Positions 45,918 through 58,008 are shown, counted from the stretch's first letter. The stretch is 64,000 bases of DNA from a virus (IMGVR_UViG_3300033233_000005); one strand, 5' to 3'. The notes: generated from the sequence alone by a model not told the origin. A program made the numbers and translations.

Positions 45918-45931
45918 CAGTTTTATAAAAT

Positions 45932-46002
45932 GGGGGCGTGGTGAAGTAGGATCACAGATCCCTTGCAAGGATCAGTCGCGGGCGCACTTCCCGCCGTCTC
46001 CA
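45932..46002 (+). tRNA. tRNA-Ala (UGC)
   Basis: G3-U70, anticodon loop CTTGCAA; unusual T-loop CGCACTT. Confidence 0.55.
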
Positions 46003-46018
46003 GGTATAATTTAAAAAC

Positions 46019-46090
46019 GGGGCATTAGCTTAAATAGTAGAGCGGTACGTTCGCATCGTACAGGACCCGGAGCGTTACCGGGATGCTCCA
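46019..46090 (+). tRNA. tRNA-Ala (CGC)
   Basis: G3-U70, anticodon loop TTCGCAT; unusual T-loop AGCGTTA. Confidence 0.55.
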
Positions 46091-46100
46091 CGGTTTTATT

Positions 46101-46181
46101 GCGGGAGTGGTGGAACGGCAGACACATACGCTTGAGGTGCGTACGGGGAAACTCGTGAAGGTTCAACTCCTTTCTCCCGCA
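46101..46181 (+). tRNA. tRNA-Leu (GAG)
   Basis: class II, anticodon loop TTGAGGT, T-loop TTCAACT, A73. Confidence 0.75.
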
Positions 46182-46193
46182 GGTTTTATAAAT

Positions 46194-46273
46194 GCCGGGG
46201 TGCTGGAATTGGTATACAGGGTGGACTCAAAACCCACTGCGAAAGCGTGAGGGTTCAACTCCCTCCCCCGGTA
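46194..46273 (+). tRNA. tRNA-Leu (CAA)
   Basis: class II, anticodon loop CTCAAAA. Confidence 0.65.
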
Positions 46274-46290
46274 GGTTTGATACAAATGAT

Positions 46291-46373
46291 GCCCCGGTGG
46301 TGGAACTGGCAGACACGCTACGTTCAGGGCGTAGTGCGAAAGCGTGAGGGTTCAACTCCCTCCTGGGGCACCA
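46291..46373 (+). tRNA. tRNA-Leu (CAG)
   Basis: class II, anticodon loop TTCAGGG, CCA encoded. Confidence 0.7.
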
Positions 46374-46384
46374 GCATTATAAAT

Positions 46385-46466
46385 GGGAGCGTGGCGGAAC
46401 TGGCATACGCATTCGCCTTAAGAGCGAACGCCGCAAGGCTTGAGGGTTCAACTCCCTCCGCTCCCA
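46385..46466 (+). tRNA. tRNA-Leu (UAA)
   Basis: class II, anticodon loop CTTAAGA. Confidence 0.75.
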
Positions 46467-46482
46467 CGGTATAAATGACGTT

Positions 46483-46722
46483 ATGACAATAGAAATCGGC
46501 AAGATTAAAAGATGGTTCTCGGGGCTGTTTACCAGAATAACAAAATGGAAGTCGACAGAGTATACTAGTGTCCATAAATTAAATGGTAGAACCTTGGACC
46601 CGGATAGAGATTCTGCTATAATCGAAGAAATGAATAGGCATATTGATCATTTAGATAAGAGATTAGACGAAATGCATGACATGCTTGATGGCATCCCTAG
46701 AATGTCAAGTTTCTTTAAATAA
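46483..46722 (+). CDS. hypothetical protein inside the tRNA island
   Basis: 79 aa ORF. Confidence 0.45.
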   Translation: MTIEIGKIKRWFSGLFTRITKWKSTEYTSVHKLNGRTLDPDRDSAIIEEMNRHIDHLDKRLDEMHDMLDGIPRMSSFFK

Positions 46723-46724
46723 AT

Positions 46725-46809
46725 GCGCTTGTGGTGGAACTGGCAGACACGTTAGCCTTAGGAGCTAATGGGTAAAACCGTGGGGGTTCGAATCCCTCCA
46801 GGCGCACCA
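46725..46809 (+). tRNA. tRNA-Leu (UAG)
   Basis: class II, anticodon loop CTTAGGA, CCA encoded. Confidence 0.75.
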
Positions 46810-46815
46810 GGACTT

Positions 46816-47049
46816 ATGGATTTTATAGTTAATGCAGCAGTGCCTCGCAACAAGGTATATTTCACAACGGCACCGCATAAGATCACGATACCGGCCCACA
46901 TAGATGTAGAGGTTAAGGTCTTTGACAACGCGCCGTCATTACGATATACAATCACGGCATTTGAACAGATGGGTACGGGAATCTTTAATACAGGTATATT
47001 GCCACCTGATATCTATGGAGAAGAAGATGGGCACTGGGCGCTGGTATAA
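46816..47049 (+). CDS. hypothetical protein
   Basis: ATG 7 nt after the tRNA CCA. Confidence 0.4.
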   Translation: MDFIVNAAVPRNKVYFTTAPHKITIPAHIDVEVKVFDNAPSLRYTITAFEQMGTGIFNTGILPPDIYGEEDGHWALV

Positions 47050-47092
47050 AATCCTCAGCAATAAAACAGAATAAACAAAGCAGGAGGCTGAC

Positions 47093-47374
47093 ATGACCAT
47101 TTCTCAAGCTATCGGTTGGTTGAAGACCCTCAGGGAACGCCATACGGAGTTGGTGAACCTTCGGAATACCAACTCCCACCGTGAAGATCGGTTGTTCGGT
47201 GACAAGCAGACAATCAAGCGGGAACCGACTTATGACGTCAAGAAACTGGACAAGTTAGTCAATAAGGTAGCTATGGAAGTCCGCAAGCTGGACGAGGCTA
47301 TCAAGGAAACCAATGCTAAGACCGAGGTAATCGGTTTCAAGAAGGATGAGAACGCTCTCGGTCAGGTAGAATAA
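47093..47374 (+). CDS. hypothetical coiled-coil protein
   Basis: RBS AGGAGG. Confidence 0.5.
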   Translation: MTISQAIGWLKTLRERHTELVNLRNTNSHREDRLFGDKQTIKREPTYDVKKLDKLVNKVAMEVRKLDEAIKETNAKTEVIGFKKDENALGQVE

Positions 47375-47379
47375 ATCTA

Positions 47380-47740
47380 ATCCTACGGGAAAGGGTGGTG
47401 AACGGTCGGGGCTATAAACATAACGATCTCATACCTCACACTGCATTAACCGAGCCATGATATCAGCATGGCACAGTGTGGAGTTGGCATCTTAAAAACG
47501 AGTACGGCGGGGATGGGGCAGGATAGTCCGGTTGTTTGGACATGTCTCCGGACGATAAACTCTAAAGAAATGTAAATGTGAGGATACTCACTCCAAAATA
47601 TGGACATCCCTTACAGGATACCATTATTACTTGTTGCTGATTGGTGTAGTGGCTATATGCCCTTGATTGTTACCCTAGTTGATAGTTGGTAACATAACCC
47701 TCTTGCGACCTGTCCGTGCTCCTGGTATAATATACATAAT
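47380..47740 (+). ncRNA. candidate structured noncoding RNA
   Basis: no ORF; nested inverted repeats CACACTG..GCCATG-ATATCAG-CATGGC..CAGTGTG, GTCCGG..GACATGTC..CCGGAC, GTTACC..GGTAAC; ends at a TATAAT-like element before tRNA-Pro. Confidence 0.3.
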
Positions 47741-47817
47741 CGGGGTGTGGGTTAATGGGAGACCGCCTGCCTTGGGCGCAGGAGTTTGAGCAGGTTCGAT
47801 TCCTGCCACCCCGACCA
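47741..47817 (+). tRNA. tRNA-Pro (UGG)
   Basis: anticodon loop CTTGGGC, T-arm GCAGG-TTCGATT-CCTGC, CCA encoded. Confidence 0.7.
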
Positions 47818-47862
47818 GCTTTATTCTACACCGCTTCGCGCTTGGCGCGGGCGGCGAAGCTG

Positions 47863-47869
47863 TATAAAA
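47863..47869 (+). promoter_or_regulatory. TATAAAA in the loop of AAGCTG/CAGCTT hairpin
   Basis: GAAGCTG-TATAAAA-CAGCTTGCGG. Confidence 0.3.
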
Positions 47870-47893
47870 CAGCTTGCGGACAGCCACCTCGGC

Positions 47894-48160
47894 ATGATAC
47901 AATCTAAGATAGAACAATACGCAATGGCGGTAGAAGGAATGGCAGACATTATTTGTACTGAGATTGAACAACGGCATATGTCAATATTAATTCCTGGCAT
48001 GCGAATGATGACAGACGCATCCCGAACCGATTCGGGGCGACAGGAAGCCCTCCTATATTTGAAACCGCAGTTGGAACGAATTAGAGACACGGCAGAGCGA
48101 CATGGAGTTATAGAGGTCCGAGATCAAGCAGTAAGTTGCCTGTCGTACTTCTCGAATTAA
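47894..48160 (+). CDS. hypothetical protein
   Basis: in-frame ATG downstream of tRNA-Pro. Confidence 0.4.
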   Translation: MIQSKIEQYAMAVEGMADIICTEIEQRHMSILIPGMRMMTDASRTDSGRQEALLYLKPQLERIRDTAERHGVIEVRDQAVSCLSYFSN

Positions 48161-48199
48161 AGGTTCCAACAACTCAGGTTTCCAGTGGATATGATCAAT

Positions 48200-48271
48200 G
48201 CTAGCGTGGCAGAATGGCTATGCACTTTCCTTGTAAGAAAGAACATGGGGGTTCGATTCCTCTCGCTAGCT
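48200..48271 (+). tRNA. tRNA-Thr (UGU)
   Basis: anticodon loop CTTGTAA. Confidence 0.65.
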
Positions 48272-48332
48272 CGGCATTTTAAAGCCCGACTTTAATAAGT
48301 CTTGGGCGGGTACTTTGACAACTGAGGGCTTT

Positions 48333-48383
48333 GGTAATGCGGTAGCAGCAGTATTGTTGCCGCATTACCTGCATTTATATATT
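48333..48383 (+). terminator. hairpin plus U-rich tail (intrinsic terminator or processing hairpin)
   Basis: GGTAATGCGG...CCGCATTACC 10-bp stem then TGCATTTATATATT. Confidence 0.4.
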
Positions 48384-48466
48384 GCGGGGTCGCCTAACTG
48401 GTCGGGCACCTGACTTTGGATCAGGAGCGGGAAACCGCACTCTAGGTTCGAATCCTAGCCCCGCAG
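48383..48466 (+). tRNA. class-II-architecture tRNA with anticodon UUG (Gln anticodon), G73
   Basis: long variable arm GCGG-GAAA-CCGC, anticodon stem CCTGA/TCAGG, loop CTTTGGA, U1-A72. Confidence 0.45.
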
Positions 48467-48478
48467 GTCTAGTATAAA

Positions 48479-48566
48479 GGAAGGTTGGCAGAGTGGCCTA
48501 TCGCGCTTGTTTGCTAAACAAGTGGGTGTAACAACTCCACAGGTTCGAATCCTGTACCTTCCGCCA
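48479..48566 (+). tRNA. tRNA-Ser (GCU)
   Basis: class II, anticodon loop TTGCTAA, G73, CCA encoded. Confidence 0.7.
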
Positions 48567-48569
48567 GGT

Positions 48570-48998
48570 ATGATAAACACATATGTATTACTCGGTGGAA
48601 GCACCAATATGCGAAAGGCAGTGATTGAAACTCCGTGTGGAAAGTGGGAAATTAGCGGAATCGAAGAAAATACAGTTTTTCTTGCATTACGTACCAAACA
48701 CATAGAGATTGTAACTGACCCGAATACCTTATCAAGATTACGGGTGCCAATGATGCAGCACCTGAGATTTAGGCTGGTCCCATTTAAATTCAAATGGTAC
48801 CATCGAATAGATTCAAAGGGTTACATTGAGAGACCCTTTCCCTTTGGTGTCTGTTTAGGCGATTGGGTCCGGGCACAAAGATTGATCCATACGATTGAGA
48901 GAGATATGACATACTTCTGCGATCCTTTGATGAAAGAGGATACGGAAGTCAGCATCAAGGTGAAACCGATCAAACAGATGTTTTCATTGCTCCCATAG
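48570..48998 (+). CDS. DPL-tail family protein
   Basis: CCAGGTATGATAAA junction; ...MTYFCDPLMKEDTEV; 3' end overlaps tRNA-Asp. Confidence 0.5.
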   Translation: MINTYVLLGGSTNMRKAVIETPCGKWEISGIEENTVFLALRTKHIEIVTDPNTLSRLRVPMMQHLRFRLVPFKFKWYHRIDSKGYIERPFPFGVCLGDWVRAQRLIHTIERDMTYFCDPLMKEDTEVSIKVKPIKQMFSLLP

Positions 48999-49062
48999 TT
49001 TAGTAGTAAAACACCCGCCTGTCACGCGGAAATCAGGAGTGCGATTCTCCTTGGGAGCGCCA
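48989..49062 (+). tRNA. tRNA-Asp (GUC)
   Basis: anticodon loop CTGTCAC; T-loop TGCGATT; CCA encoded. Confidence 0.65.
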
Positions 49063-49063
49063 G

Positions 49064-49138
49064 CAGGGGATAGTGAAAAAGTATCACATTCGCTTGGGGT
49101 GCGAATAGTCCCGGTGCAACTTCCGGGTCCCCTGACCA
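49064..49138 (+). tRNA. tRNA-Pro (GGG)
   Basis: anticodon loop TTGGGGT; 8-nt T-loop TGCAACTT. Confidence 0.55.
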
Positions 49139-49157
49139 GCTTATTTTGATGTGAAGC

Positions 49158-49230
49158 CAGGCTTTAGCTCAACGGTAGAGCATCGCCCCCTGATAGGGCG
49201 AGGTAACTGGTTCGACTCCAGTAAACCTGG
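49158..49230 (+). tRNA. tRNA-Ile(GAU)-like scaffold with register-shifted anticodon loop (reads as CCUGAUA)
   Basis: TAGCTCAACGGTAGAGC D-arm; CGCCC-CCTGATA-GGGCG with C33 and one extra nt at the D/anticodon junction; acceptor C-A mismatch. Confidence 0.4.
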
Positions 49231-49243
49231 ATAAGCATCATTT

Positions 49244-49317
49244 CGGGGAATAGTGAAAAGGCATCACACGTGTTTCGGGTACACGCAGTCCGAGTTCGAG
49301 TCTCGGTTCCCCGACCA
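49244..49317 (+). tRNA. tRNA-Pro (CGG)
   Basis: anticodon loop TTCGGGT, canonical T-loop TTCGAGT, CCA. Confidence 0.75.
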
Positions 49318-49337
49318 GCTTATTTTGACATGAAGTT

Positions 49338-49414
49338 AGGGTTGTAGCTCAGCACGGAGCGGCAGGAGGCGTGGACCTCCCCAGCGGTAGCGGGTGAAAC
49401 TCCCGTCAAACTAA
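49338..49414 (+). pseudogene. degenerate tRNA-like element (pseudo-tRNA)
   Basis: canonical D-arm TAGCTCAG..GAGC and T-arm GCGGG-TGAAACT-CCCGT but 6-nt anticodon loop, 4-nt D/anticodon junction and 2 acceptor mismatches. Confidence 0.45.
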
Positions 49415-49442
49415 ATAATGTCACGGTCAGCTAGCATGAAGT

Positions 49443-49546
49443 CAGGCTGTAGCTCAGTAATGGAGCAAACCCCCGCCATAAGGGGATCAATTCCGATCCT
49501 TTTACGGGGGGGCCAAAGGTAGCTGGTGAAACTCCAGTCAACCTGA
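49443..49546 (+). tRNA. tRNA-like gene with CAU-containing loop and about 33-nt insertion (possible intron or degenerate tRNA)
   Basis: acceptor CAGGCTG/CAACCTG, D-arm, T-arm GCTGG-TGAAACT-CCAGT; CCCC-GCCATAA-GGGG plus hairpin GGATC-AATTCC-GATCC insert. Confidence 0.4.
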
Positions 49547-49560
49547 ACAGTGCTATTTAT

Positions 49561-49649
49561 TGGCAGGACGCGAATGTTGGTTAGTCGCATCCGGCTGTTA
49601 CCCGGAGATCATCGAAAGATGAACGTAGGTTCGATCCCTACCCTGCCAG
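49561..49649 (+). tRNA. class-II-architecture tRNA with anticodon GUU (Asn anticodon), G73
   Basis: anticodon stem TCCGG/CCGGA, loop CTGTTAC, variable arm CATC-GAAA-GATG, U1-A72. Confidence 0.45.
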
Positions 49650-49659
49650 GATTTATAAT

Positions 49660-49734
49660 GGTGAGTGTAGCTCAATGGTAGAGCGCTGGTCTGTGGCACC
49701 AGAAACGCGGGATCGATACCCGTCATTCACCCCA
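49660..49734 (+). tRNA. tRNA-His (GUG)
   Basis: G-1, C73, anticodon loop CTGTGGC, CCA. Confidence 0.75.
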
Positions 49735-49872
49735 GCTTAGTAAGGATACTGGAAGTAGCCAACTTGCGTAAAATAGGAGCCGGTGTTTCCTTAGTAGGTC
49801 CTCTCAAACTGGACCGAAGGGTTGCCAGTGGCTGTCCGTGCGCGGGATAATCGGGCCCAGTATCCCTTTAAT
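49735..49872 (+). other. unassigned structured spacer in the tRNA island
   Basis: hairpins GGTCC-TCTCAAACT-GGACC and GGGATA..TATCCC; no tRNA fold found. Confidence 0.3.
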
Positions 49873-49946
49873 GGGGATGTCGTCTAGAAGCAGGACACCT
49901 GGCTTTCATCCAGGAGAAGAGGGAGCATTACCCTCCATCCCTACCA
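49873..49946 (+). tRNA. tRNA-Glu (UUC)
   Basis: anticodon loop CTTTCAT; T-loop AGCATTA; CCA. Confidence 0.6.
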
Positions 49947-49956
49947 GTTTCTTAAT

Positions 49957-50031
49957 GGGCGATTAGCTCAGCAGTAGAGCGCTTGATTCACATTCAAGAG
50001 GTCGCAGGGGCAGCACCTGCATCGCTCACCA
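49957..50031 (+). tRNA. tRNA-Val (CAC)
   Basis: anticodon loop TTCACAT; T-loop GGCAGCA; CCA. Confidence 0.65.
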
Positions 50032-50034
50032 TTT

Positions 50035-50109
50035 GGCCCCGTAGCTCAGCGGTAGAGCGTCTGGTTTACATCCAGAAGGCCGTAGGGTCAGCACCTACCG
50101 GGGTCACCA
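50035..50109 (+). tRNA. tRNA-Val (UAC)
   Basis: anticodon loop TTTACAT; T-loop GTCAGCA; CCA. Confidence 0.65.
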
Positions 50110-50112
50110 GGT

Positions 50113-50430
50113 ATGATAAATCTAAAGAAGCATCCAATCAGATTTTACCAGATAGACAATGACGGCGATAACTATCTATATTTCGCTTATGGTCGTAAAT
50201 GCTATGATTGGGCATCCAATAGACCAGACAGAGATGGGATAAGCATTACAGAGATCACAAAGGAAGACATGATGCAATCGGGTATACAGAGAATAACCAA
50301 TTTAGCCGATTTTTATAGTCTAAATGCGATTCAATTTGCGGTGGCTAAATATTTACTGAATCACCCAGATATTTTGAATGATCCGTTGTGGACTGGCGCA
50401 GATGTTGAATTACCAAGTCTTGAGAAATAA
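50113..50430 (+). CDS. DPLW-tail family protein
   Basis: CCAGGTATGATAAA junction; ...NHPDILNDPLWTGADVE. Confidence 0.55.
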   Translation: MINLKKHPIRFYQIDNDGDNYLYFAYGRKCYDWASNRPDRDGISITEITKEDMMQSGIQRITNLADFYSLNAIQFAVAKYLLNHPDILNDPLWTGADVELPSLEK

Positions 50431-50433
50431 CAT

Positions 50434-50519
50434 GGAGGGAATCCGGATGGTTGAGGAACCTGTTTCGAAAACAGCTGGCCCTAATAGGCTCGTGGGTTCG
50501 ATTCCCACTCCCTCCGCCA
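50434..50519 (+). tRNA. tRNA-Ser (CGA)
   Basis: class II, anticodon loop TTCGAAA, G73, CCA. Confidence 0.65.
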
Positions 50520-50565
50520 GCTATTATGATGAAGATATGTGGGAAGTAGGATCTGACTAATTAAC

Positions 50566-50653
50566 GGAAAGTTGGCCGAGTGGTTTAAGGCGTACGCTTG
50601 GAGAGCGTAAGAGTGTAACAACTCCGTAGGTTCGAATCCTACACTTTCCGCCA
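50566..50653 (+). tRNA. tRNA-Ser (GGA)
   Basis: class II, anticodon loop TTGGAGA, G73, CCA. Confidence 0.8.
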
Positions 50654-50654
50654 T

Positions 50655-50729
50655 GGTGGGGTAGCCAAGTGGTAAGGCAACTGCCTGCAAAGCAGTTCTA
50701 CGTCGGTTCGAATCCGACCCTCACCTCCA
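50655..50729 (+). tRNA. tRNA-Cys (GCA)
   Basis: anticodon loop CTGCAAA, U73, CCA. Confidence 0.75.
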
Positions 50730-50758
50730 GCATTATAAACTTAAAAATAGGAGAGAAA

Positions 50759-51028
50759 ATGAAACTGCAATTTCCATGTTGGTTGACCGGCCACAAATGG
50801 GAACTGTACGGTACCGCCAGGCATGATAGAGTAAGACATGATAGATTAGGCAACGAAACCACAAGGTGGGAGGAGGTACCAGCAATAGTTAATCAGTGTA
50901 AATGCTGTGGAAAGAGAGTAGGATTCACAGTATTACCCGATAGTAATGAATCAACCAATGTAGATTGGCTAATGAGTCTGGCCAGCTTCGGTAAAATACG
51001 ATCTCCGAACAGGATGTCCGAGGATTAA
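50759..51028 (+). CDS. Cys-containing small protein (CKCCGK)
   Basis: in-frame ATG after GGAGAG. Confidence 0.45.
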   Translation: MKLQFPCWLTGHKWELYGTARHDRVRHDRLGNETTRWEEVPAIVNQCKCCGKRVGFTVLPDSNESTNVDWLMSLASFGKIRSPNRMSED

Positions 51029-51030
51029 TT

Positions 51031-51105
51031 GGCCCTGTCGTCTACTGGCTAGGACAGGTCCCTCTCAAGGACCAGAAACGAGTTCAATTCTCGTCAGGGC
51101 CACCA
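51031..51105 (+). tRNA. tRNA-Glu (CUC)
   Basis: anticodon loop CTCTCAA, T-loop TTCAATT, CCA. Confidence 0.75.
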
Positions 51106-51117
51106 GTACTATATAAT

Positions 51118-51188
51118 GCCCCCGTAGGTAAATAGTATACCGCACCCTTGATAAGGGTTAATCCTTGGAGCGTAACCAAGCGGGGGCA
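51118..51188 (+). tRNA. tRNA-Ile (GAU)
   Basis: anticodon loop TTGATAA; T-loop AGCGTAA. Confidence 0.6.
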
Positions 51189-51194
51189 GGAATC

Positions 51195-51578
51195 ATGAAG
51201 ATAGAACGCTCGATTCGATCTGAATACTTTGGTGCGGGTTCAAAGTACATGCCGGTTCTGATAATTGGAGATCATTGTTATAGTATGCGCATTGCAAATC
51301 GACATTTTATAATTAGACGTCACTCATCAATGGATTCCCTTTTATTACCCCAAAATAGGTTGGAGTTAATTGGCTATGTTGATATGCACGGCTATTTGGA
51401 GGCATCTTGGCACCAACCCTGTGTAACGTTAAACGGGTGGTATGAAATGCTAGAAGCTAAAATCCCATTTATATGTGATCCACTAGCCTGGGATGGCGAT
51501 CAGCAGGAGATAGAAATAGAAGGCGAACCGGCTGGTATTCTCGTAGACAAATTATTAAAGGAGGGTGAGCCGTGTTGA
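51195..51578 (+). CDS. DPLAW-tail family protein
   Basis: ...KIPFICDPLAWDGDQQ. Confidence 0.55.
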   Translation: MKIERSIRSEYFGAGSKYMPVLIIGDHCYSMRIANRHFIIRRHSSMDSLLLPQNRLELIGYVDMHGYLEASWHQPCVTLNGWYEMLEAKIPFICDPLAWDGDQQEIEIEGEPAGILVDKLLKEGEPC

Positions 51579-52114
51579 ATTCGGCGGTCCTATTGTTGAA
51601 TTCTACCTACGAGCCTCTTAACATAATCAATGTGAAGCGTGCCCTTCGTCTACTATTTACAGATAAGGCCAATGTAATAGAAACGGATGGATCAATGGTG
51701 CGGTCTTCCAGGAAGAACACCAAGATGCCTTTGGTGGTCAGATTGAGCTACTACGTCAAACGGCCTCACCAGCACGTCCGGTTTACTAAACAGGCCGTAT
51801 TCGTTCGTGATCAATTCACTTGCCAGTATTGTGGCATACAGTCCAGAGATCTAACTCTTGATCACGTGGTACCTAAAACCCGCAATGGTGAAACTACCTG
51901 GGGTAACGTCGTAGCAGCTTGCAAATCCTGCAATTCTGCCAAGAGTGACAAGTCTCTCAAGGATGCTGGATTGAAGCTCAAGCATCAGCCGAAGGAGCCT
52001 AAATTCCTACCGTATTTGAAAGCAGTCAATAGGGAACGTCATCAGGAATGGAATAAGTATCTATTCACAGATACTGACAGTCCGTTCCTTCTGCAAGGGC
52101 CGCTTCCGGTATAA
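51572..52114 (+). CDS. HNH endonuclease
   Basis: GTG after GGAGGG; CQYCG...LDHVVPKTRNG...N..AACKSCNSAK. Confidence 0.8.
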   Translation: MLNSAVLLLNSTYEPLNIINVKRALRLLFTDKANVIETDGSMVRSSRKNTKMPLVVRLSYYVKRPHQHVRFTKQAVFVRDQFTCQYCGIQSRDLTLDHVVPKTRNGETTWGNVVAACKSCNSAKSDKSLKDAGLKLKHQPKEPKFLPYLKAVNRERHQEWNKYLFTDTDSPFLLQGPLPV

Positions 52115-52133
52115 AGCTCGGCGTCGGGTCGTG

Positions 52134-52209
52134 GCAGAATGGATATGCACTCCCCTCCTAAGGGAGCATGAAGTGGGTTCGACTCCCACCGACCCGGCCA
52201 TGGTATAAT
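52134..52209 (+). tRNA. tRNA-Arg (CCU)
   Basis: anticodon loop CTCCTAA, CCA; TATAAAG element 9 nt upstream. Confidence 0.65.
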
Positions 52210-52223
52210 AAAACTGCGGGATA

Positions 52224-52298
52224 GCCTAGCGGTGCAGGCATGTGGCTCATACCCATACCAGGTAGGTTCGACTCCTACTCCCGCACCCATCTTCATTC
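52224..52298 (+). tRNA. tRNA-Met/Ile2 (CAU)
   Basis: anticodon loop CTCATAC, U1-A72, CCA. Confidence 0.6.
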
Positions 52299-52315
52299 GA
52301 TTTTATCCTGGGGTA

Positions 52316-52391
52316 GCTGAGATTAGATTAGCGCCTCCCTGAAGAGGAGGAGAGGTTGGTGCAATACCAATCCCCAGGACCAGGAATTATG
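52316..52391 (+). tRNA. tRNA-Phe (GAA)
   Basis: anticodon loop CTGAAGA; T-loop TGCAATA; CCA. Confidence 0.6.
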
Positions 52392-52397
52392 AGAAAT

Positions 52398-52544
52398 TAC
52401 CACGGCAATAAACAGTGTGAGTTGTGCGGTAAACCTACGAATGAGCATTTACGGTTGGTCAGGGTGGCTATATATCACATGGCTTGGTGCTGTCTTAGCT
52501 GTTGGTTGCTTCCGTTAAAGCTTCGCGTACAGAGATGGGGATAA
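52398..52544 (+). CDS. small Cys-rich (Zn-ribbon-like) protein
   Basis: CELCGK...CC..C; 48 aa. Confidence 0.3.
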   Translation, partial: YHGNKQCELCGKPTNEHLRLVRVAIYHMAWCCLSCWLLPLKLRVQRWG

Positions 52545-52549
52545 ATAAC

Positions 52550-52622
52550 GCCAGCGTAGCTCAGTTAGTAGAGCGCTCCGCTCATATCGGAGAGGTAGTG
52601 GGGGCAGAACCCACCGCTGGTA
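52550..52622 (+). tRNA. tRNA-Met/Ile2 (CAU)
   Basis: anticodon loop CTCATAT; T-loop GGCAGAA. Confidence 0.6.
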
Positions 52623-52628
52623 GGCATT

Positions 52629-52757
52629 ATGAATAAGCGAGAGGGATACGAGAAGATTAAGGGTAAATGCGAACGATGTGGTAAATGGAGAGTATTACGG
52701 ACTGCATTGGAATGGTGGTATTGCTCTAGGTGCTACAAGATTGCAATGTCGAAATAA
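52629..52757 (+). CDS. small Zn-ribbon protein (CERCG...CSRC)
   Basis: 42 aa ORF between tRNAs. Confidence 0.3.
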   Translation: MNKREGYEKIKGKCERCGKWRVLRTALEWWYCSRCYKIAMSK

Positions 52758-52758
52758 C

Positions 52759-52840
52759 GGGTGTGACCCCTAATTGGTCAGGGACTAGCCTCTTAAGCTA
52801 GCGACGCAAGTCACAGTGGGTTCGATCCCCACCACACCCA
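52759..52840 (+). tRNA. class-II-architecture tRNA with anticodon CUU (Lys anticodon), A73
   Basis: anticodon stem CTAGC/GCTAG, loop CTCTTAA, variable arm GAC-GCAA-GTC. Confidence 0.45.
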
Positions 52841-52851
52841 GGTTTTATAAC

Positions 52852-52922
52852 GGGTTGGTAATTCAACAGCAGAATAGCGGGCTTTTAACCCGTCCACGAG
52901 GGTGCGACTCCCTCCCAACCCA
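52852..52922 (+). tRNA. tRNA-Lys (UUU)
   Basis: anticodon loop CTTTTAA; T-loop TGCGACT. Confidence 0.65.
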
Positions 52923-52930
52923 GGAATAAT

Positions 52931-53146
52931 ATGGAACTAAAGAAACTTACAATCGAGTTTGACGAGGCAGAAATGCATGCTCTAATTACCACTGGGGAGC
53001 TATTGCACCAGATGTCTATCAGTGGTAAATTTAGTGAGTGGAAGCGCAGTTTAACATTATACGACAGGAGAAGGTATACTGTCGCCATGGACAGAATGGC
53101 GCTATTAGTCTTCAAATTACAGAAGGCATTGAAAGACGTCAAATAA
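52931..53146 (+). CDS. hypothetical protein
   Basis: 71 aa. Confidence 0.45.
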   Translation: MELKKLTIEFDEAEMHALITTGELLHQMSISGKFSEWKRSLTLYDRRRYTVAMDRMALLVFKLQKALKDVK

Positions 53147-53147
53147 C

Positions 53148-53233
53148 GGGTAGGTGGCCGAATGGTTAGGCGACAGTCTGTAAAACTGTGGAGCTTGTCT
53201 CTGACGGTGGTTCGATTCCACCCCTACCCACCA
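53148..53233 (+). tRNA. tRNA-Tyr (GUA)
   Basis: class II, anticodon loop CTGTAAA, A73, CCA. Confidence 0.8.
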
Positions 53234-53246
53234 GTTTCATAAATTC

Positions 53247-53320
53247 GCGGGGTTGGCGTAATAGTAACGCACTTCCTTGCCAAGGAAGGGTCACCGGAGC
53301 GTAACCGGTACTCCGCTCCA
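53247..53320 (+). tRNA. tRNA-Gly (GCC)
   Basis: anticodon loop TTGCCAA, U73; T-loop AGCGTAA; CCA. Confidence 0.65.
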
Positions 53321-53338
53321 CCTTCATAGGAGTTCATC

Positions 53339-53590
53339 ATGTGGGACAAGATCACCGATTTCACCGATCAGCTAGACTGGTCTGACGTGTTTTTCATTGT
53401 ATCGGGTTTCTCATTCGGCATAACGGCGGCTACGTTCTGGATAAATTTCTTTGATGACGTTAGGGAATGGGGAGCGGGGCTGACCCTATTATTGCTATTA
53501 ATATGGGTGTCAGCTGGCATTATATCAATGCGTGGCGCGCTAAAGTATAAAGAGAGCGTCAGCAAAAAGGCCGGTGTCGTACAAAAGTAG
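53339..53590 (+). CDS. hypothetical membrane protein
   Basis: RBS AGGAG; two transmembrane helices. Confidence 0.5.
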   Translation: MWDKITDFTDQLDWSDVFFIVSGFSFGITAATFWINFFDDVREWGAGLTLLLLLIWVSAGIISMRGALKYKESVSKKAGVVQK

Positions 53591-53595
53591 TACAC

Positions 53596-53610
53596 GCCCT
53601 TGGTAAGGGC
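53596..53610 (+). terminator. short hairpin after gene (weak terminator candidate)
   Basis: GCCCTT-GGT-AAGGGC; no U-tail. Confidence 0.2.
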
Positions 53611-53651
53611 GAAACAAGGGGGCAGTACCCTTCACTGGCTTGGCATTATAG

Positions 53652-53725
53652 GCGGGATTCGTATAGTGGTAATACCCTAGACTTCCAATCTAGAGACGTG
53701 GATTCGATTTCCACATCCCGCTCCA
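53652..53725 (+). tRNA. tRNA-Gly (UCC)
   Basis: anticodon loop CTTCCAA, U73, T-loop TTCGATT, CCA. Confidence 0.8.
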
Positions 53726-53731
53726 GTCATT

Positions 53732-54211
53732 ATGAGATTTATCAGCGCATATTGGCATGTCAATAAACATCTGAGTATATCATGTGGCAAGCACATATGG
53801 ATAGTTAGTAGAATAACTAAGAATAGAATCACAATAATACGCAGAATGCGGGTCGTAGGGCACACGGACGATGGGCATGAATATCATGGTACCTACAGGC
53901 TCCCTAGAAACGTGAAATGGATTCAACCTAATGGTGAATTGGGTAGTATAGAAACCAGTTATGGGCCGAATCGGCGTAGAGAATACGACACCACTCATAG
54001 ATATTCGATCACACAGATAAAGAAGGAAATACGAGACAGTAAGATATTCTACGATCCATTAGCTCCGTATAAAGGGTTTCACGGGCTAACCATCGATATA
54101 TTACGGGAGAATCGTATAGTAGCTATTACTTCCGCCTCCAAAGCGGAAAACAGTGGTGCGATTCCACTTTCTCCCGCCAGCAATAATCAACAAGTAAAGG
54201 AGAGCAAATGA
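53732..54211 (+). CDS. DPL-tail family protein (extended C-terminus)
   Basis: ...DSKIFYDPLAPYKGFHG. Confidence 0.45.
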   Translation: MRFISAYWHVNKHLSISCGKHIWIVSRITKNRITIIRRMRVVGHTDDGHEYHGTYRLPRNVKWIQPNGELGSIETSYGPNRRREYDTTHRYSITQIKKEIRDSKIFYDPLAPYKGFHGLTIDILRENRIVAITSASKAENSGAIPLSPASNNQQVKESK

Positions 54212-54744
54212 ACAAGCAAGAATGGATAGATGCATATCACGCTCTGGCCAAGAAAGTGGCTCCCAGGTTACCCTCTGTTACCGAATTGGGTGCCGCTTGT
54301 CAAATGACCAGAGAACGTGCCAGGCAGATAACCAATAAATACAAACTGCCAGTTGATCATTTATCTAGCATCAGGAAAGCTAAACGCATAGAAGCGGTCA
54401 TAAGCGCACACAGTGCATTAGAATCAGAATTACATAGACCACCACAGTTACGTGAAGTGCATAAGAAGCTTGGTAATTCCTATGAATTGCAGGGTATTAG
54501 GCTGGCGTTGCGTTCTAACAAGATGCATTCTATTCATGGTAGTGTAAAAACAGATCGAAGGGTTAAATTCATCAAATATTATAATGAATTTAAACGAACA
54601 TTTCACCGTGTTCCATATGGAGCAGAGATGGCTAGGAAACTTAATCTTTGGACCCTGACTGCCATTAGAATGGCGCACGAGCTAAAATTGCCTCTATTTA
54701 AGGGCACACTTCTACCGGTATCACAGAGGGGTACCTACTGGTGA
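54208..54744 (+). CDS. putative sigma-70 region-4-like HTH protein
   Basis: ATGA; ELGAACQMTRERARQITNK resembles the sigma region 4.2 helix. Confidence 0.4.
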   Translation: MNKQEWIDAYHALAKKVAPRLPSVTELGAACQMTRERARQITNKYKLPVDHLSSIRKAKRIEAVISAHSALESELHRPPQLREVHKKLGNSYELQGIRLALRSNKMHSIHGSVKTDRRVKFIKYYNEFKRTFHRVPYGAEMARKLNLWTLTAIRMAHELKLPLFKGTLLPVSQRGTYW

Positions 54745-55475
54745 GTGTGCTAGACACCGGTATTAAGGGATATACCCAATTAGATAGGCAGGCTATGGCT
54801 AAGGGTGGTGGATCAGTAATCATAGGGATAGACGAAGTTGGAATGGGGCCGTTGGCCGGTCCCGTTTGCGCGTGTGCTCTGATTGTCGGGAAGGAACCTA
54901 AGCAGGGGGAACTGGTGGTAAACGATTCCAAGCTGTTGTCACCCAAGAGGCGCGAGGAATTGTTCCCCAAGATCAGAGATAACAGCATCTTTGAATTGGG
55001 ATGGGTGACGGTCAAAGAAATCAACAAACTACAGAACCTTAACGCTGCTGGAAATCTGGCTAGGGAACGGGCATTAAAGAAACTGATCAAAACGATAGGC
55101 TGGCTGCATCCGAATGCGATTATTTGCGATTTCTTCCCGATAGACGCCGGTAACATACCCGTTCTCGCGGTTCCCAAGGCCGATGCCAATTCCTTCATCG
55201 TAGCGTGTGCGTCAATCGTGGCCAAGGTAGCTAGAGATAGATGGATGATCGCGCAAGCCAAGAAATATCCGGAATACATGTGGGATAAGAATAGCGGATA
55301 CAGAACACCAGAGCATCACATGGCACTAAAGATGCATGGCATCACCCCGATACATAGGACTTATCTGGTAGACAAATATTTAAAGGACTACACTATTGCT
55401 GGGTCGCCTAATGGTATGGCAACTGTCTCTGAAACAGTCACAATGGAGGTTCGAACCCTCCCCCAGCAGGAATGA
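54741..55475 (+). CDS. rnhB: ribonuclease HII
   Basis: GTGA; VIIGIDEVGMGPLAGPV and DSKLLSPKRREELF motifs; 3' end overlaps tRNA-Gln. Confidence 0.9.
   Translation: MSVLDTGIKGYTQLDRQAMAKGGGSVIIGIDEVGMGPLAGPVCACALIVGKEPKQGELVVNDSKLLSPKRREELFPKIRDNSIFELGWVTVKEINKLQNLNAAGNLARERALKKLIKTIGWLHPNAIICDFFPIDAGNIPVLAVPKADANSFIVACASIVAKVARDRWMIAQAKKYPEYMWDKNSGYRTPEHHMALKMHGITPIHRTYLVDKYLKDYTIAGSPNGMATVSETVTMEVRTLPQQE
55397..55469 (+). tRNA. tRNA-Gln (CUG)
   Basis: anticodon loop CTCTGAA, T-arm GGAGG-TTCGAAC-CCTCC, U1-A72; lies inside the rnhB ORF. Confidence 0.6.
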
Positions 55476-55660
55476 TGCATAAACTTAGCATACCAATAGC
55501 TAAATTACTGTTGATTAAAGAGAAATTACCAGAAGAATTGGCGATGCAACTAGAGGCATACAAGGTGGCAGGAGAGATAGTCAATGCTGACCTGAGTATA
55601 CTGGTCTCTGTATCAGAAGAGACTTATAACATATTACTTAGCTCCGAATTCCATGATTGA
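55472..55660 (+). CDS. hypothetical protein
   Basis: ATGA-coupled. Confidence 0.4.
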   Translation: MMHKLSIPIAKLLLIKEKLPEELAMQLEAYKVAGEIVNADLSILVSVSEETYNILLSSEFHD

Positions 55661-55895
55661 TACCAATCCTTTACTGAATAAGGAGATAATGGATCAGACT
55701 TTCAGCTATGAATGCGTAGTATGCGTTTCTAGAAATTGGGCATACGGATACTGGCATTTATTTGGATGGAGATTATTTTGGACTATACACATATATGAAT
55801 TCTGTACAGAATGCTACAAAGAATCCGATGTCTTACAGCCCGAAAGTAGATTTACTAAATGGCTATTTAAACATGGCTGGCTAACCACACCATAG
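55653..55895 (+). CDS. hypothetical Cys/Trp-rich protein
   Basis: ATGA-coupled. Confidence 0.4.
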   Translation: MIDTNPLLNKEIMDQTFSYECVVCVSRNWAYGYWHLFGWRLFWTIHIYEFCTECYKESDVLQPESRFTKWLFKHGWLTTP

Positions 55896-55903
55896 GAGAA
55901 GAT

Positions 55904-56407
55904 ATGAAGAATAGGATGCGCGAGCCAGTAAAAGAGGAACAGGGCATACACAAGAAGTGGTATGAAGAGGCCAAGAAGATGACTCTTAAAGATCTTCCTA
56001 AATTCATAGAGAAGTTGGATGAGATGTACGAACACGATTACGGCACTGTTTGTCATTCTATAGCCGCCGCTGCTTTAGCCACTGCCAACGCCATGAATAG
56101 GGGTAAGGGGAGTCGTGGAGGTATTACTGGATTTCAGTCTGGCGCAGTTATGTGGCAGTTTATAACTGGATGGGGATTATATGAGAAAGATGCCCCTCTG
56201 CACATTATCGACTATAACGACATGCTATACCCACAGTCTGTTGGTAAGTTCACCGAGATCAGCGCTGACACGTGGGAACATCTACAGAAAGAGGCTAAGA
56301 CCAGATTAAAAGAAGATAAGGATAAGTCGGCGCATCCCAATGTACGTGCCCATTGGCAATTAATAATAGATGGGGTCGTCCCATTTGGGTATAAAATAGA
56401 GAAATAA
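55904..56407 (+). CDS. hypothetical protein
   Basis: RBS AGGAG; 167 aa. Confidence 0.5.
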   Translation: MKNRMREPVKEEQGIHKKWYEEAKKMTLKDLPKFIEKLDEMYEHDYGTVCHSIAAAALATANAMNRGKGSRGGITGFQSGAVMWQFITGWGLYEKDAPLHIIDYNDMLYPQSVGKFTEISADTWEHLQKEAKTRLKEDKDKSAHPNVRAHWQLIIDGVVPFGYKIEK

Positions 56408-56413
56408 AACGTT

Positions 56414-56489
56414 GGACCGGTAGCCTAGAGGACAGGCACTGAGCTTCTACCTCAGCTTCACGCGGGTTCGATTCCTGCCCGGTCCGCCA
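56414..56489 (+). tRNA. tRNA-Arg (UCU)
   Basis: anticodon loop CTTCTAC, CCA. Confidence 0.7.
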
Positions 56490-56529
56490 GCATTATAGCC
56501 AACGAGATAAATACGATTTGACACGATGC

Positions 56530-56604
56530 GGGGAATTCGTCCAATGGCTAGGACATTAGCCCGACATGCTAAAAACACTGGTTCGAATCCAGTATTCCCT
56601 ACCA
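56530..56604 (+). tRNA. tRNA-Val (GAC)
   Basis: anticodon loop CCGACAT (C33), T-loop TTCGAAT, CCA. Confidence 0.6.
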
Positions 56605-56605
56605 T

Positions 56606-56680
56606 CGGGTTGTGGTCCAATAGATAAGACAGCAGCCTCCGAAGCTGCAAACGGGAGTGCAAATCTCCCCAACCCGGCCA
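56606..56680 (+). tRNA. tRNA-Arg (CCG)
   Basis: anticodon loop CTCCGAA, C1-G72, CCA. Confidence 0.65.
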
Positions 56681-56688
56681 GGAATAAT

Positions 56689-56949
56689 ATGATAAATAAA
56701 CTTGAATTAAAATGCGCATTGTCTGGCAAAAACATACAATGGATATTTATGGCGATGCTACTGATAATATTCAATACACTTATGGTATATGTTAATTATC
56801 CGCATAAGCGTTGCTTGATTAATGTTCTAGCTGCGTTGGTCCCACTTAGTATACTATGGGACAGAATCCGCATGGCTAGAATAGACTTGAAATTGCAGAA
56901 GGAGATAGACGAGCTAATGGAGTTAATATACAAACATGAAACGCATTAG
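56689..56949 (+). CDS. hypothetical membrane protein
   Basis: ATG after the tRNA; two transmembrane helices. Confidence 0.45.
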   Translation: MINKLELKCALSGKNIQWIFMAMLLIIFNTLMVYVNYPHKRCLINVLAALVPLSILWDRIRMARIDLKLQKEIDELMELIYKHETH

Positions 56950-57406
56950 TAAATCTCAGTATTACATGTCTCTGGTGAACGTAGTTAAATTGCGTTCACA
57001 TGACGCCGAGACACAGGCTGGCGCGGTTTTGATAAAGAAAGACACAGGTGCGGTGATCGCCACAGGATTTAACGGATTCGTAAGGGGTGCCAATGATGCA
57101 GCATTACCCAATACCAGACCAGAAAAATACAAGCACATAATACATGCAGAAGAGAATCTGATAGCCCATTGCGCTAGGCATGGCATATCAATGTCCGGTT
57201 GTGAGATATACATCAACTTCGCACCGTGCGAACATTGCGCCAGATTGTTATGGCAGTGCGGAATAGATACTATAATCATTGAAAGTACCGATGCGACTCC
57301 GTCATTTAAGAAATATTTTGAGGCTATGACCACTATGAAGGATATAGCAGTAAAGATGACCACTACGCCAGAGCATCATACGGTATTAAAATTAAAATCT
57401 AAATAA
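56936..57406 (+). CDS. dCMP/cytidine deaminase (CDA fold)
   Basis: HAEENLI...PCEHCARLL zinc-binding motifs. Confidence 0.8.
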   Translation: MKRISKSQYYMSLVNVVKLRSHDAETQAGAVLIKKDTGAVIATGFNGFVRGANDAALPNTRPEKYKHIIHAEENLIAHCARHGISMSGCEIYINFAPCEHCARLLWQCGIDTIIIESTDATPSFKKYFEAMTTMKDIAVKMTTTPEHHTVLKLKSK

Positions 57407-57407
57407 T

Positions 57408-57499
57408 GCCCCTGTAGCATAATGGTAGTGCAGCAAGCTTATACCTTGCAAGCCCTAGATTGGGGCGCGATGGGGGTTCGATTCCCTCCAGGGGTACCA
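57408..57499 (+). tRNA. class-II-architecture tRNA with anticodon UAU (Ile anticodon), A73
   Basis: anticodon stem GCAAG/CTTGC, loop CTTATAC, 22-nt variable arm GCCC-TAGATTG-GGGC, CCA. Confidence 0.45.
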
Positions 57500-57505
57500 G
57501 TTATC

Positions 57506-57835
57506 ATGATCAAGATAATGAAGACCATAGACAGACCGAAGTATGAGGGTAATTTCTATGTCCAGACACCCGTTGGTCTATGGTGGTTAAATGGAAACGC
57601 CGATGGTTGGTTAGAATGGATGTCCACCGCAGCCCGTAGTATATTGGATAGACCAGAAGCCAAATTACACAGGCTAACTGCAGAAGACATAATTAGACCA
57701 TGGGTAGCAGCTATGATCAGATCCGTAGAAGAACACCAATACATGTTCTTTGATCCGTTCGCGCAGATAGAATACAACCATAGTATGTTACATAGAACTA
57801 AGATCGTAAGAATGCCATACAACGATCCGAATTGA
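57506..57835 (+). CDS. DPL-tail family protein (DPFAQ)
   Basis: ...HQYMFFDPFAQIEYNH. Confidence 0.5.
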   Translation: MIKIMKTIDRPKYEGNFYVQTPVGLWWLNGNADGWLEWMSTAARSILDRPEAKLHRLTAEDIIRPWVAAMIRSVEEHQYMFFDPFAQIEYNHSMLHRTKIVRMPYNDPN

Positions 57836-57839
57836 ATAT

Positions 57840-57911
57840 GCTGGCGTGGCAGAATGGCTATGCACTCCGCCCGTAACGGAGACAATGTAGGTTCAATTCC
57901 TACCGCTAGCT
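57840..57911 (+). tRNA. tRNA-Thr (CGU)
   Basis: anticodon loop CCCGTAA, T-loop TTCAATT. Confidence 0.65.
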
Positions 57912-57921
57912 CGTCTTAATT

Positions 57922-57993
57922 GGGCTTGTCGTTCAACAGATAGGACTAGCGCCTACGAAGCGCTGAATGGGGGTGCGACTCCCTCCAAGCCCG
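57922..57993 (+). tRNA. tRNA-Arg (ACG)
   Basis: anticodon loop CTACGAA; T-loop TGCGACT. Confidence 0.65.
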
Positions 57994-58008
57994 GTATTAT
58001 CTCCGCGT

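Follow-up and report, generated by a model that had tools for sequence, protein, structure and literature searches.

The tRNA genes of a virus, IMGVR_UViG_3300033233_000005, of which we analysed a stretch of 64,000 nucleotides (one strand; hereafter the window), include many whose elbow, the contact between D-loop and T-loop, is built from nucleotides other than the canonical ones. In canonical transfer RNA (tRNA), G18 of the D-loop intercalates between R57 and A58 of the T-loop and bonds pseudouridine 55 (Psi55), T54 and A58 form a reverse-Hoogsteen pair, and G19:C56 caps the stack; standard teaching holds G18, T54, Psi55 and A58 to be all but invariant in cytoplasmic tRNAs. In the window, all 15 tRNAs with G55 in the T-loop have A18 in the D-loop, and all 30 with T55 have G18 (Fisher p = 2.9e-12); a chance association of A18 with G55 is excluded. 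We consider it likely that these are working phage tRNAs in which the inner layers of the elbow have been swapped for other nucleotides, in matched sets that leave the architecture unchanged.

The window is part of a large phage genome, with a guanine plus cytosine (G+C) content of 48% and many short open reading frames (ORFs) on the same strand, with PHROG matches. Its sequence corresponds to the metagenomic contig k141_1314216 (163,875 bp) of ENA ERZ27248239. The Rfam model RF00005, at its gathering score, finds 44 tRNAs (34.8-68.4 bits), and ARAGORN alone adds a tRNA-Asn at 49560-49650, for a total of 45 genes. All of them lie in a single array except a tRNA(CAU) at 21825, and a more permissive Rfam scan gave no further tRNA-like genes in the array. 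T-arms were extracted by anchoring on the 7-bp acceptor stem and the 5-bp T stem; the acceptor stem pairs at 7/7 positions in 44 of the 45 genes (6-7/7 in all), and the T stem at 5/5 in every one. A canonical elbow, with GG in the D-loop and TTCRA in the T-loop, is found in 27 of the 45, and this fully canonical set includes every Leu, Ser and Tyr tRNA.

The T-loop sequence T54-T55-C56-R57-A58 is missing from the other 18 genes, 15 of which have G55. Three classes account for most of them: TGCRA.. in seven tRNAs (Asp, Pro-GGG, Phe, Lys-UUU, Trp, Arg-CCG and Arg-ACG), AGCRT.A in four (Ala-CGC, Glu-UUC, Ile-GAU and Gly-GCC) and GGCAG.A in three (Val-CAC, CAU at 52550 and Thr-GGU). The remaining loops occur in one gene each: CGCACTT in Ala-UGC, GTCAGCA in Val-UAC, ATCGATA in His and ATCGTTC in Met at 21825. 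A first-pass annotation of this DNA had quoted several of these loops, each of which we found at its gene, and had put at 15 or more the 7-nt loops lacking the canonical pattern; the count rises to 18 genes, one of which (Pro-GGG) has a loop of 8 nt. The array and the 18 genes, with their RF00005 scores, are as follows.

45847-57994, + strand: tRNA array of 44 genes (43 from Rfam and the tRNA-Asn from ARAGORN), with small ORFs between them
21825-21898, + strand: tRNA(CAU)/Met; T-loop ATCGTTC (A54:U58 swapped, U55 kept); D-loop AATTGGTTA (G18 G19 kept); 66.3 bits
45932-46002, + strand: tRNA-Ala(UGC); T-loop CGCACTT (C54, G55, C58); D-loop AGTAGGA (A18 G19); G3:U70; 51.7 bits
46019-46090, + strand: tRNA-Ala(CGC); T-loop AGCGTTA (A54 G55 U58 A60); D-loop AAATAGTA (A18 G19); G3:U70; 45.6 bits
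48989-49059, + strand: tRNA-Asp(GUC); T-loop TGCGATT (U-G-N-R-A type); D-loop AGTAGTA (A18 G19); 62.1 bits
49064-49135, + strand: tRNA-Pro(GGG); 8-nt T-loop TGCAACTT; D-loop AAAAGTA (A18 G19); 49.4 bits
49661-49731, + strand: tRNA-His(GUG); T-loop ATCGATA (A54, A58, A60); D-loop AATGGTA (GG kept); G-1, C73; 63.5 bits
49873-49943, + strand: tRNA-Glu(UUC); T-loop AGCATTA; D-loop AGAAGCA (A18 G19); 49.1 bits
49957-50028, + strand: tRNA-Val(CAC); T-loop GGCAGCA (G54:G58, G55, A60); D-loop AGCAGTA (A18 G19); 53.0 bits
50035-50106, + strand: tRNA-Val(UAC); T-loop GTCAGCA (G54:G58, U55); D-loop AGCGGTA (GG kept); 60.4 bits
51118-51188, + strand: tRNA-Ile(GAU), second copy; T-loop AGCGTAA; D-loop AATAGTA (A18 G19); 48.6 bits
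52307-52379, + strand: tRNA-Phe(GAA); T-loop TGCAATA; D-loop AGATTAGAT (A18 G19); 46.0 bits
52550-52622, + strand: tRNA(CAU); T-loop GGCAGAA; D-loop AGTTAGTA (A18 G19); 51.5 bits
52852-52922, + strand: tRNA-Lys(UUU); T-loop TGCGACT; D-loop AACAGCA (A18 G19); 60.7 bits
53247-53317, + strand: tRNA-Gly(GCC); T-loop AGCGTAA; D-loop AATAGTA (A18 G19); U73, C2:G71, G3:C70; 50.9 bits
53570-53640, + strand: tRNA-Thr(GGU); T-loop GGCAGTA; D-loop AAAAGTA (A18 G19); 44.1 bits
54105-54176, + strand: tRNA-Trp(CCA); T-loop TGCGATT; D-loop AGTAGCTA (A18 G19); 56.6 bits
56606-56677, + strand: tRNA-Arg(CCG); T-loop TGCAAAT; D-loop CAATAGATAA (A18 G19 A20); 58.5 bits
57922-57993, + strand: tRNA-Arg(ACG); T-loop TGCGACT; D-loop AACAGATA (A18 G19 A20); 48.4 bits

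The first-pass annotation did not mention the change in the D-loop, G18 to A18, that matches these T-loops and that points to compensation within a tertiary contact and not to a damaged elbow. The 15 A18/G55 genes cover 13 amino-acid specificities. The RF00005 alignment sets their A beneath the G18 column, and the four tRNA-Arg genes have A20 directly after position 19 (the alternative pair of genes reading AG-A, the canonical pair GG-A), which fixes the register of AG-A as that of GG-A. Several positions do not change in any of the 45 tRNAs, namely G19:C56, R57 and G53:C61, and U8 and A14 are also present in all. At 54:58 the only pairs besides T:A are A:T (5), G:G (4), C:C (1) and A:A (1), which together occupy 11 tRNAs. 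Every loop of the window with A54 or G54 also has A60, with the exception of Met at 21825 (ATCGTTC), which has C60.

Artefact or decay, that is, loops misfolded by eye or pseudogenes, would be an extremely improbable explanation of these genes. In its favour, ARAGORN at default settings fails on seven of the 45 genes, and six of the seven are among the 18 non-canonical ones; the mean Rfam score of the G55 group is also slightly lower (51.7 vs 55.0 bits), a difference that is not significant (p = 0.08). The genes missed by ARAGORN nevertheless have minimum-free-energy folds that are cloverleaves, and all 18 have perfect acceptor (7/7) and T (5/5) stems, with no stem mismatches, and score 44.1-66.3 bits (44-62 bits for the 15 with G55) against a cut-off of 29. 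The covariance-model check proposed in the first-pass annotation agrees with the fold, since RF00005 aligns each gene over its full length (1-71) with the odd loop in the T-loop columns, and no alternative canonical T-arm was found. Its argument that recurring sub-motifs speak against misfolding likewise stands: the loops fall into classes, the stems are perfect and the D-loop covaries strictly. Moreover, a cloverleaf finder that ignores loop sequence had no matches on the minus strand of the window and none on the shuffled window. The elements by which synthetases identify tRNAs, read from sequence for a subset of specificities, fit the anticodon in Ala, His, Arg, Gly-GCC, Thr-GGU and Pro-GGG; G3:U70 is kept in all three tRNA-Ala, alternative and canonical alike, tRNA-His keeps G-1 and C73, Thr-GGU has G1:C72 and C2:G71, and Pro-GGG has C1:G72 and A73. 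The stem mismatches and uncoordinated loss of pseudogenes are absent, the changes being strictly coordinated and the same states recurring in cellular tRNAs of the single-copy type, and the genes also differ from specialised or atypical tRNAs (cell-wall tRNA-Gly, tRNAPyl, mitochondrial type) in that G19:C56 is kept in all of them, with standard cloverleaf dimensions and 13 specificities. Finally, the same loops recur in unrelated genomes.

To find these elbows elsewhere we used a DNA pattern for the A18 D-arm only (TAGCTCAGNAGTAGAGC), leaving the T-loop free. The pattern matched at least 120 viral stretches; the matches listed held 68 unique tRNAs, of which about 64 had a T-loop with G55 and two had TTC. 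When the loop-blind finder was applied to the viral loci found in this way, the tRNAs other than those that seeded the search gave, for positions 18-19 and 55-56, GG:TC 213 times, AG:GC 29 times, GG:GC once and AG:TC never (p = 1e-36). Control viral loci seeded on the canonical D-arm gave GG:TC 308, AG:GC 7, GG:GC 1 and AG:TC 1, and A54:T58 was found in 15 of the 324 viral tRNAs of this control set. The viral background taken from the control loci is therefore about 2.5% for G55 and 5% for A54:U58, as compared with 33% and 11% in the window, where G55 is some 13-fold above background. Some viral contigs are richer still in alternative elbows, such as L040, with 10 of 11 tRNAs; L026 has 6 of 14.

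Unrelated phages known as isolates show the same combinations in individual tRNAs. The tRNA-Phe of Acinetobacter phage Acj9 (AGACAGAT / TGCAATT) is 82% identical to that of the window and has the same elbow, and in E. coli phage Av-05 the tRNA(CAU) at 52550 is matched by a tRNA with AGTTAGTA / GGCAGAG. Erythrobacter phage L02 combines AGCAGTA with GGCAGCA in one tRNA and AGTATTA with TGAAATT, that is, A18 U19 : G55 A56, in another. Acj9 tRNA-Asp has the T-loop ATCGAAA, and CGCGA T-loops occur in other viral tRNAs. No tRNAs are annotated in the stretches of the Av-05 and Erythrobacter L02 records that we examined. The best tRNA matches found anywhere are at most 82% identical; megablast of the array found no close relatives among GenBank phages, and in IMG/VR and JGI metagenomes the window's RNase HII and DNA ligase have relatives that reach at most 46% identity, none with tRNAs close by. 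Three BLAST matches to alternative-elbow tRNAs, phiKZ tRNA-Asp, S-CBWM1 tRNA-Lys and Mx1 tRNA-Gly, were set aside, their elbows being canonical.

The outer pair of the elbow also covaries in viral tRNAs: A19:U56 is found in T5 tRNA-Ile1, S-CBWM1 and Erythrobacter L02, and U19:A56 in loci L026 and L071. In T5 no tRNA has G55, and the A19:U56 tRNA is the one such case. Some viral tRNAs (L071, L032) have U54-C55-C56 with G18 and G19 kept.

The same D-arm pattern also matches bacterial and archaeal genomes, and the findings given here are among the matches listed. In SAR11, a bacterial group that ranks among the most abundant in the ocean, the chromosomal tRNA-Phe has A18 and UGCGA in at least dozens of single-cell and isolate genomes, including contigs on the Mb scale, which makes a decayed or accessory copy unlikely. 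The SAR11 (Pelagibacteraceae) loci, of which six were noted by name (L144, L142, L175, L178, L180 and L157), also include, near tRNA-Phe, a tRNA-His with AATAGTA / AGCGTAA, or with GGCAGAA or TGCAATT, and a tRNA-Thr(GGU) with GTCAGTA. The elbow of the SAR11 tRNA-Phe is found in tRNA-Phe of Chloroflexi, the candidate phyla radiation (CPR) and Verrucomicrobia, and in tRNA-Ala and tRNA-Thr of DPANN archaea. The presence of alternative elbows in chromosomal tRNAs of free-living cells argues for a function in ordinary translation.

Two further families came up among the cellular matches. Streptomyces (L151, L163, L170) has genes resembling tRNA-Gly(UCC) in tandem, with A18 in the D-loop, UGCGAU in the T-loop and irregularities in the T stem; they may be cell-wall glycine donors. 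In Actinomycetota (L173, L184, L230, L232, L240, L246) there is an odd tRNA-like family with GGCGGCA or GGCAGCA T-loops and varied anticodon loops.

T-loops outside tRNA follow UGNRA in 88.7% of cases and CGNRA in 10.9%, and their intercalating base, which is A in 99.96%, bonds the sugar edge of the G at position 2 (bioRxiv 10.1101/2022.12.26.521914). Since UGNRA with an intercalating adenosine is thus the non-tRNA consensus, the A18/G55 tRNAs look like structure-preserving alternative elbows and not like misfolds or pseudogenes. A18 would intercalate between positions 57 and 58 and hydrogen-bond the sugar edge of G55, like the receptor adenosine on the U-G-N-R-A T-loops of riboswitches and further large RNAs, and tRNAs with TGCRA and A18 would then use the generic T-loop/receptor solution instead of the tRNA-specific UUCRA with G18. 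The formula Y-G-N-R-A followed by two trailing bases describes 7 of the 15 G55 tRNAs, the TGCRA class (Pro-GGG has three trailing bases), and does not describe AGCRU (4), GGCAG (3) or CGCAC (1). An A at the G18 position is found, at the level of sequence, in all 15 G55 tRNAs here and in nearly all G55 tRNAs elsewhere. A yeast suppressor tRNA is inactivated by single changes at G18, U55, G19, C56, U54 or A58 (PMC4117946), which fits the occurrence of these changes only as matched sets.

The face formed by G19:C56, on which RNase P, the ribosome and T-boxes stack, is retained, and RNase P, the ribosome and the CCA-adding enzyme should therefore still recognise these tRNAs. The first-pass annotation had proposed that altered elbows could change modification, and the chemistry bears this out: A18/G55 tRNAs should be unable to receive Psi55 from TruB or 2'-O-methylguanosine 18 (Gm18) from TrmH, and the 11 tRNAs with a non-U54 pair, which have A, G or C at position 54, should be unable to receive 5-methyluridine 54 (m5U54) from TrmA. 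Such tRNAs would fold without TruB, TrmH or TrmA, and anything that reads T54-Psi55 would meet in them a T-loop of different chemistry.

The closest known likeness is to the generic T-loops of flavin mononucleotide (FMN) and cobalamin riboswitches, RNase P RNA and ribosomal RNA (rRNA), whose exact UGNRA motif with a partner A is shared by the seven TGCRA tRNAs, and whose CGNRA minority class is matched by the CGCGA loops of other viral tRNAs. Unlike in those RNAs, the motif stands here within a tRNA, a molecule in which UUCRA with G18 had passed for nearly universal, and C56 still pairs with G19, the AGCRU, GGCRG and CGCAC classes fall outside the YGNRA consensus, and the likeness is one of sequence. 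GGCAG resembles the GGAAG T-loop noted in rRNA (bioRxiv 10.1101/2022.12.26.521914), as well as the G54:G58 pair reportedly selected in the laboratory. For natural tRNAs without G18 G19 or T54-Psi55-C56 there are likewise precedents, in that tRNAPyl carries G55 (PMC1851642) and the staphylococcal non-proteinogenic (NP) tRNA-Gly has U18 or C18 together with U19 (PMC4574755). However, these are single specialised tRNAs that have lost G19:C56, with other architectural changes in tRNAPyl, whereas the window has 13 ordinary specificities in which G19:C56 and the standard cloverleaf are kept. The eukaryotic initiator tRNA has a purine-purine pair, A54-A58 (PMC7912444); A54, A58 and A60 are shared with it by the tRNA-His at 49661 and Acj9 tRNA-Asp, both of which keep U55, G18 and G19 but which, unlike the initiator, are elongators of bacteriophages and are not connected with initiation.

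Zagryadskaya, Doyon and Steinberg (NAR 2003) reportedly selected G54:G58 and G54:A58 in vivo among randomised E. coli suppressor tRNAs, as substitutes for the reverse-Hoogsteen U54:A58 pair. That was a single tRNA in the laboratory, whereas here G54:G58 is natural and recurrent, usually with A18:G55: it occurs in four tRNAs of the window (GGCAG.A in three and GTCAGCA in one), in other phages and in SAR11 tRNA-Thr. In the window each of the four copies has A60 as well, and so do most copies elsewhere, while GGCAGAG of Av-05 has G60. In the open-access literature we found neither A18:G55 nor these T-loop classes described for phage or SAR11 tRNAs; as the search was of open-access literature only, an older description of A18:G55 elbows cannot be ruled out. 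Such sequences are already in public records, and some of them are annotated as tRNAs.

As to why this phage has so many alternative elbows, the weakest step of the account, we favour repeated compensated switching among a few isosteric states, with modification independence possibly helping. Fast-evolving phage tRNAs, and some streamlined cells, would tolerate the alternative states better than typical bacterial tRNAs do. Several points weigh against this interpretation as a whole. The role given to A18 in three dimensions is argued by analogy, and the alternative-elbow tRNAs are judged to be working tRNAs from their gene sequences. We could document no precedent for A54:U58 (AGCRU) or C54:C58 (CGCAC), and the D-loop of Ala-UGC, AGTAGGA, can be read either as A18 G19 or as G18 G19. 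In addition, the 13-fold enrichment (33% vs about 2.5%) is not readily explained by drift alone, nor are viral contigs that are nearly all alternative (10 of 11 tRNAs in L040); the enrichment leaves room for selection.

One form that selection could take is independence from modification itself, the elbows being kept for freedom from host TruB, TrmA and TrmH and for fast, stable folding when these enzymes are limiting or their chaperoning is missing. This is unlikely as the full explanation, although it has a real chance: G55, non-U54 and A18 remove the substrates of precisely the three universal elbow modifications, as judged from chemistry (PMC7912444), and the elbows also occur in the genome-streamlined SAR11 and DPANN lineages, but most tRNAs of both the phage and SAR11 keep U54-U55 and so would still need the enzymes, and the advantage in stability or folding is a prediction. 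Selection by an enemy, raised in the first-pass annotation as evasion of nucleases that recognise the T-loop or elbow, is a doubtful alternative. In it, phage tRNAs with these elbows would be cut poorly by a nuclease or toxin that reads T54-Psi55 or G18-Psi55, be it a host defence or a shut-off enzyme of the phage that spares the phage tRNAs. Phage tRNAs are known to evade anticodon nucleases through loop substitutions, and those tRNAs, too, differ from the host at normally conserved loop positions, but in the anticodon loop and with the nuclease demonstrated, whereas the changes described here are in the elbow. A T-loop-cleaving tRNase exists in CdiA-CT E479, which cuts between the conserved T and Psi (PMC9086364), and both the 13-fold enrichment and the nearly all-alternative contigs would suit a protective role. 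Against it, protection would be only partial with 27 of 45 tRNAs fully canonical, no candidate for a tRNA nuclease or modification enzyme was found among the approximately 37 window ORFs scanned against Pfam, PHROGs or NCBIfam, the open-access literature yielded no anti-phage system that targets the elbow, and the chromosomal tRNAs of free-living cells have the same elbows.

Escape at the level of DNA is improbable. Homing endonucleases resident in phage tRNA clusters would cut conserved tRNA-gene DNA, and compensated changes would protect the gene while the tRNA survives. T4 SegB and the T5 F-Tfl enzymes have cleavage sites in the tRNA-gene regions of related phages, the T5 tRNA region holds several HNH genes, and the GGTTCGAATCC block is the most conserved DNA of the array, which itself contains an HNH gene:

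51572-52114, + strand: HNH endonuclease ORF, inside the tRNA array

No other protein of the window has homologues within further viral arrays of alternative-elbow tRNAs (30-37% identical, in the unrelated viral contigs L121, L133, L040 and L117), and the HNH enzyme may be relevant to this explanation only. However, the target site of the enzyme is a supposition, a matched D-loop change is not needed to escape cleavage of T-loop DNA but only for the tRNA to go on working, the elbows also occur in cellular chromosomes, and escape would explain a cause and not the pattern. The first-pass annotation had also raised a host with unusual tRNAs, whose style the phage would copy, and this we regard as highly improbable. 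Cellular lineages with several alternative-elbow tRNAs do exist, and the SAR11 tRNA-His AATAGTA / AGCGTAA has the loops of Gly-GCC and Ile-GAU of the window. Yet the window mixes elbow types even within an anticodon, as in the two tRNA-Ile(GAU), canonical at 49158-49230 and alternative at 51118-51188, and the three tRNAs with CAU, and its 13 specificities compare with a few in any cell sampled. SAR11 itself was rejected as the host, with a G+C of 29% vs 48% and tRNA identities of at most 70%.

The T-loops of the three tRNAs with a CAU anticodon are all different: ATCGTTC at 21825, TTCGACT at 52215 and GGCAGAA at 52550. Long stem-loop variable arms are found in tRNA-Gln(UUG) (48383-48466), tRNA-Asn(GUU) (49560-49650), tRNA-Lys(CUU) (52759-52840) and tRNA-Ile(UAU) (57408-57496), amino acids whose tRNAs usually have a short variable loop; the elbow is canonical in each of the four. 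For Gln(UUG) and Asn(GUU) the acceptor stem drawn by ARAGORN has 8 bp, and Asn(GUU) and the Ser(CGA) at 50434 score higher against the tRNA-Sec model, yet under the threshold of that model.

The scan of window ORFs also found AAA ATPases, an SPFH protein, a VWA/metallopeptidase protein, NADAR, phosphoesterase, RNase HII, DNA ligase and deaminase proteins. The zinc deaminase ORF (56936-57406, + strand), which adjoins tRNA-Arg(ACG), was considered as TadA and rejected; it is of the dCMP-deaminase/ComEB type instead, with matches to dCMP deaminase/ComEB and anti-phage dCTP deaminase models that are all far below the cut-offs. The NADAR-domain protein is at 19814-20659 (+ strand). A calcineurin-like phosphoesterase (21906-22625, + strand) lies directly 3' of the lone tRNA(CAU), and in Synechococcus phage S-CBWM1 and Myxococcus phage Mx1 a similar phosphoesterase lies next to the tRNA array. 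The window also has a match to the type-P5 twister ribozyme (RF02684) at 1891-1955 (+ strand; 48.4 bits vs a gathering score of 37.6). Among the other viruses, transfer-messenger RNA (tmRNA) genes, some of them permuted, lie within the tRNA arrays of Erythrobacter L02, Myxococcus phage Mx1 and two IMG/VR contigs (L016, L018, L040, L137), and contig L117 has a group I intron.

Compensated, rule-bound alternatives to a near-invariant elbow are thus present in a third of the tRNAs of one phage, in about 2-5% of the viral tRNAs sampled and in SAR11 chromosomal tRNAs, and they tie the tRNA elbow into the T-loop/receptor grammar that large RNAs have in common. They offer natural test cases for the roles of Psi55, m5U54 and Gm18. 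Since standard finders under-call genes with alternative elbows, phage tRNA counts and codon-supply analyses are biased. The elbow may also, as the anticodon loop is, be contested between phage and host, which can be tested. It is rather unlikely, although conceivable, that A18:G55 and the 54:58 variants that go with it make up a distinct phage type of elbow, under selection as a mark that separates phage tRNAs from those of the host, the phage tRNAs being spared by a T-loop nuclease (of host defence or of phage shut-off) or free of TruB, TrmA and TrmH; if true, such phages would have gone some of the way to a tRNA set orthogonal at the elbow.

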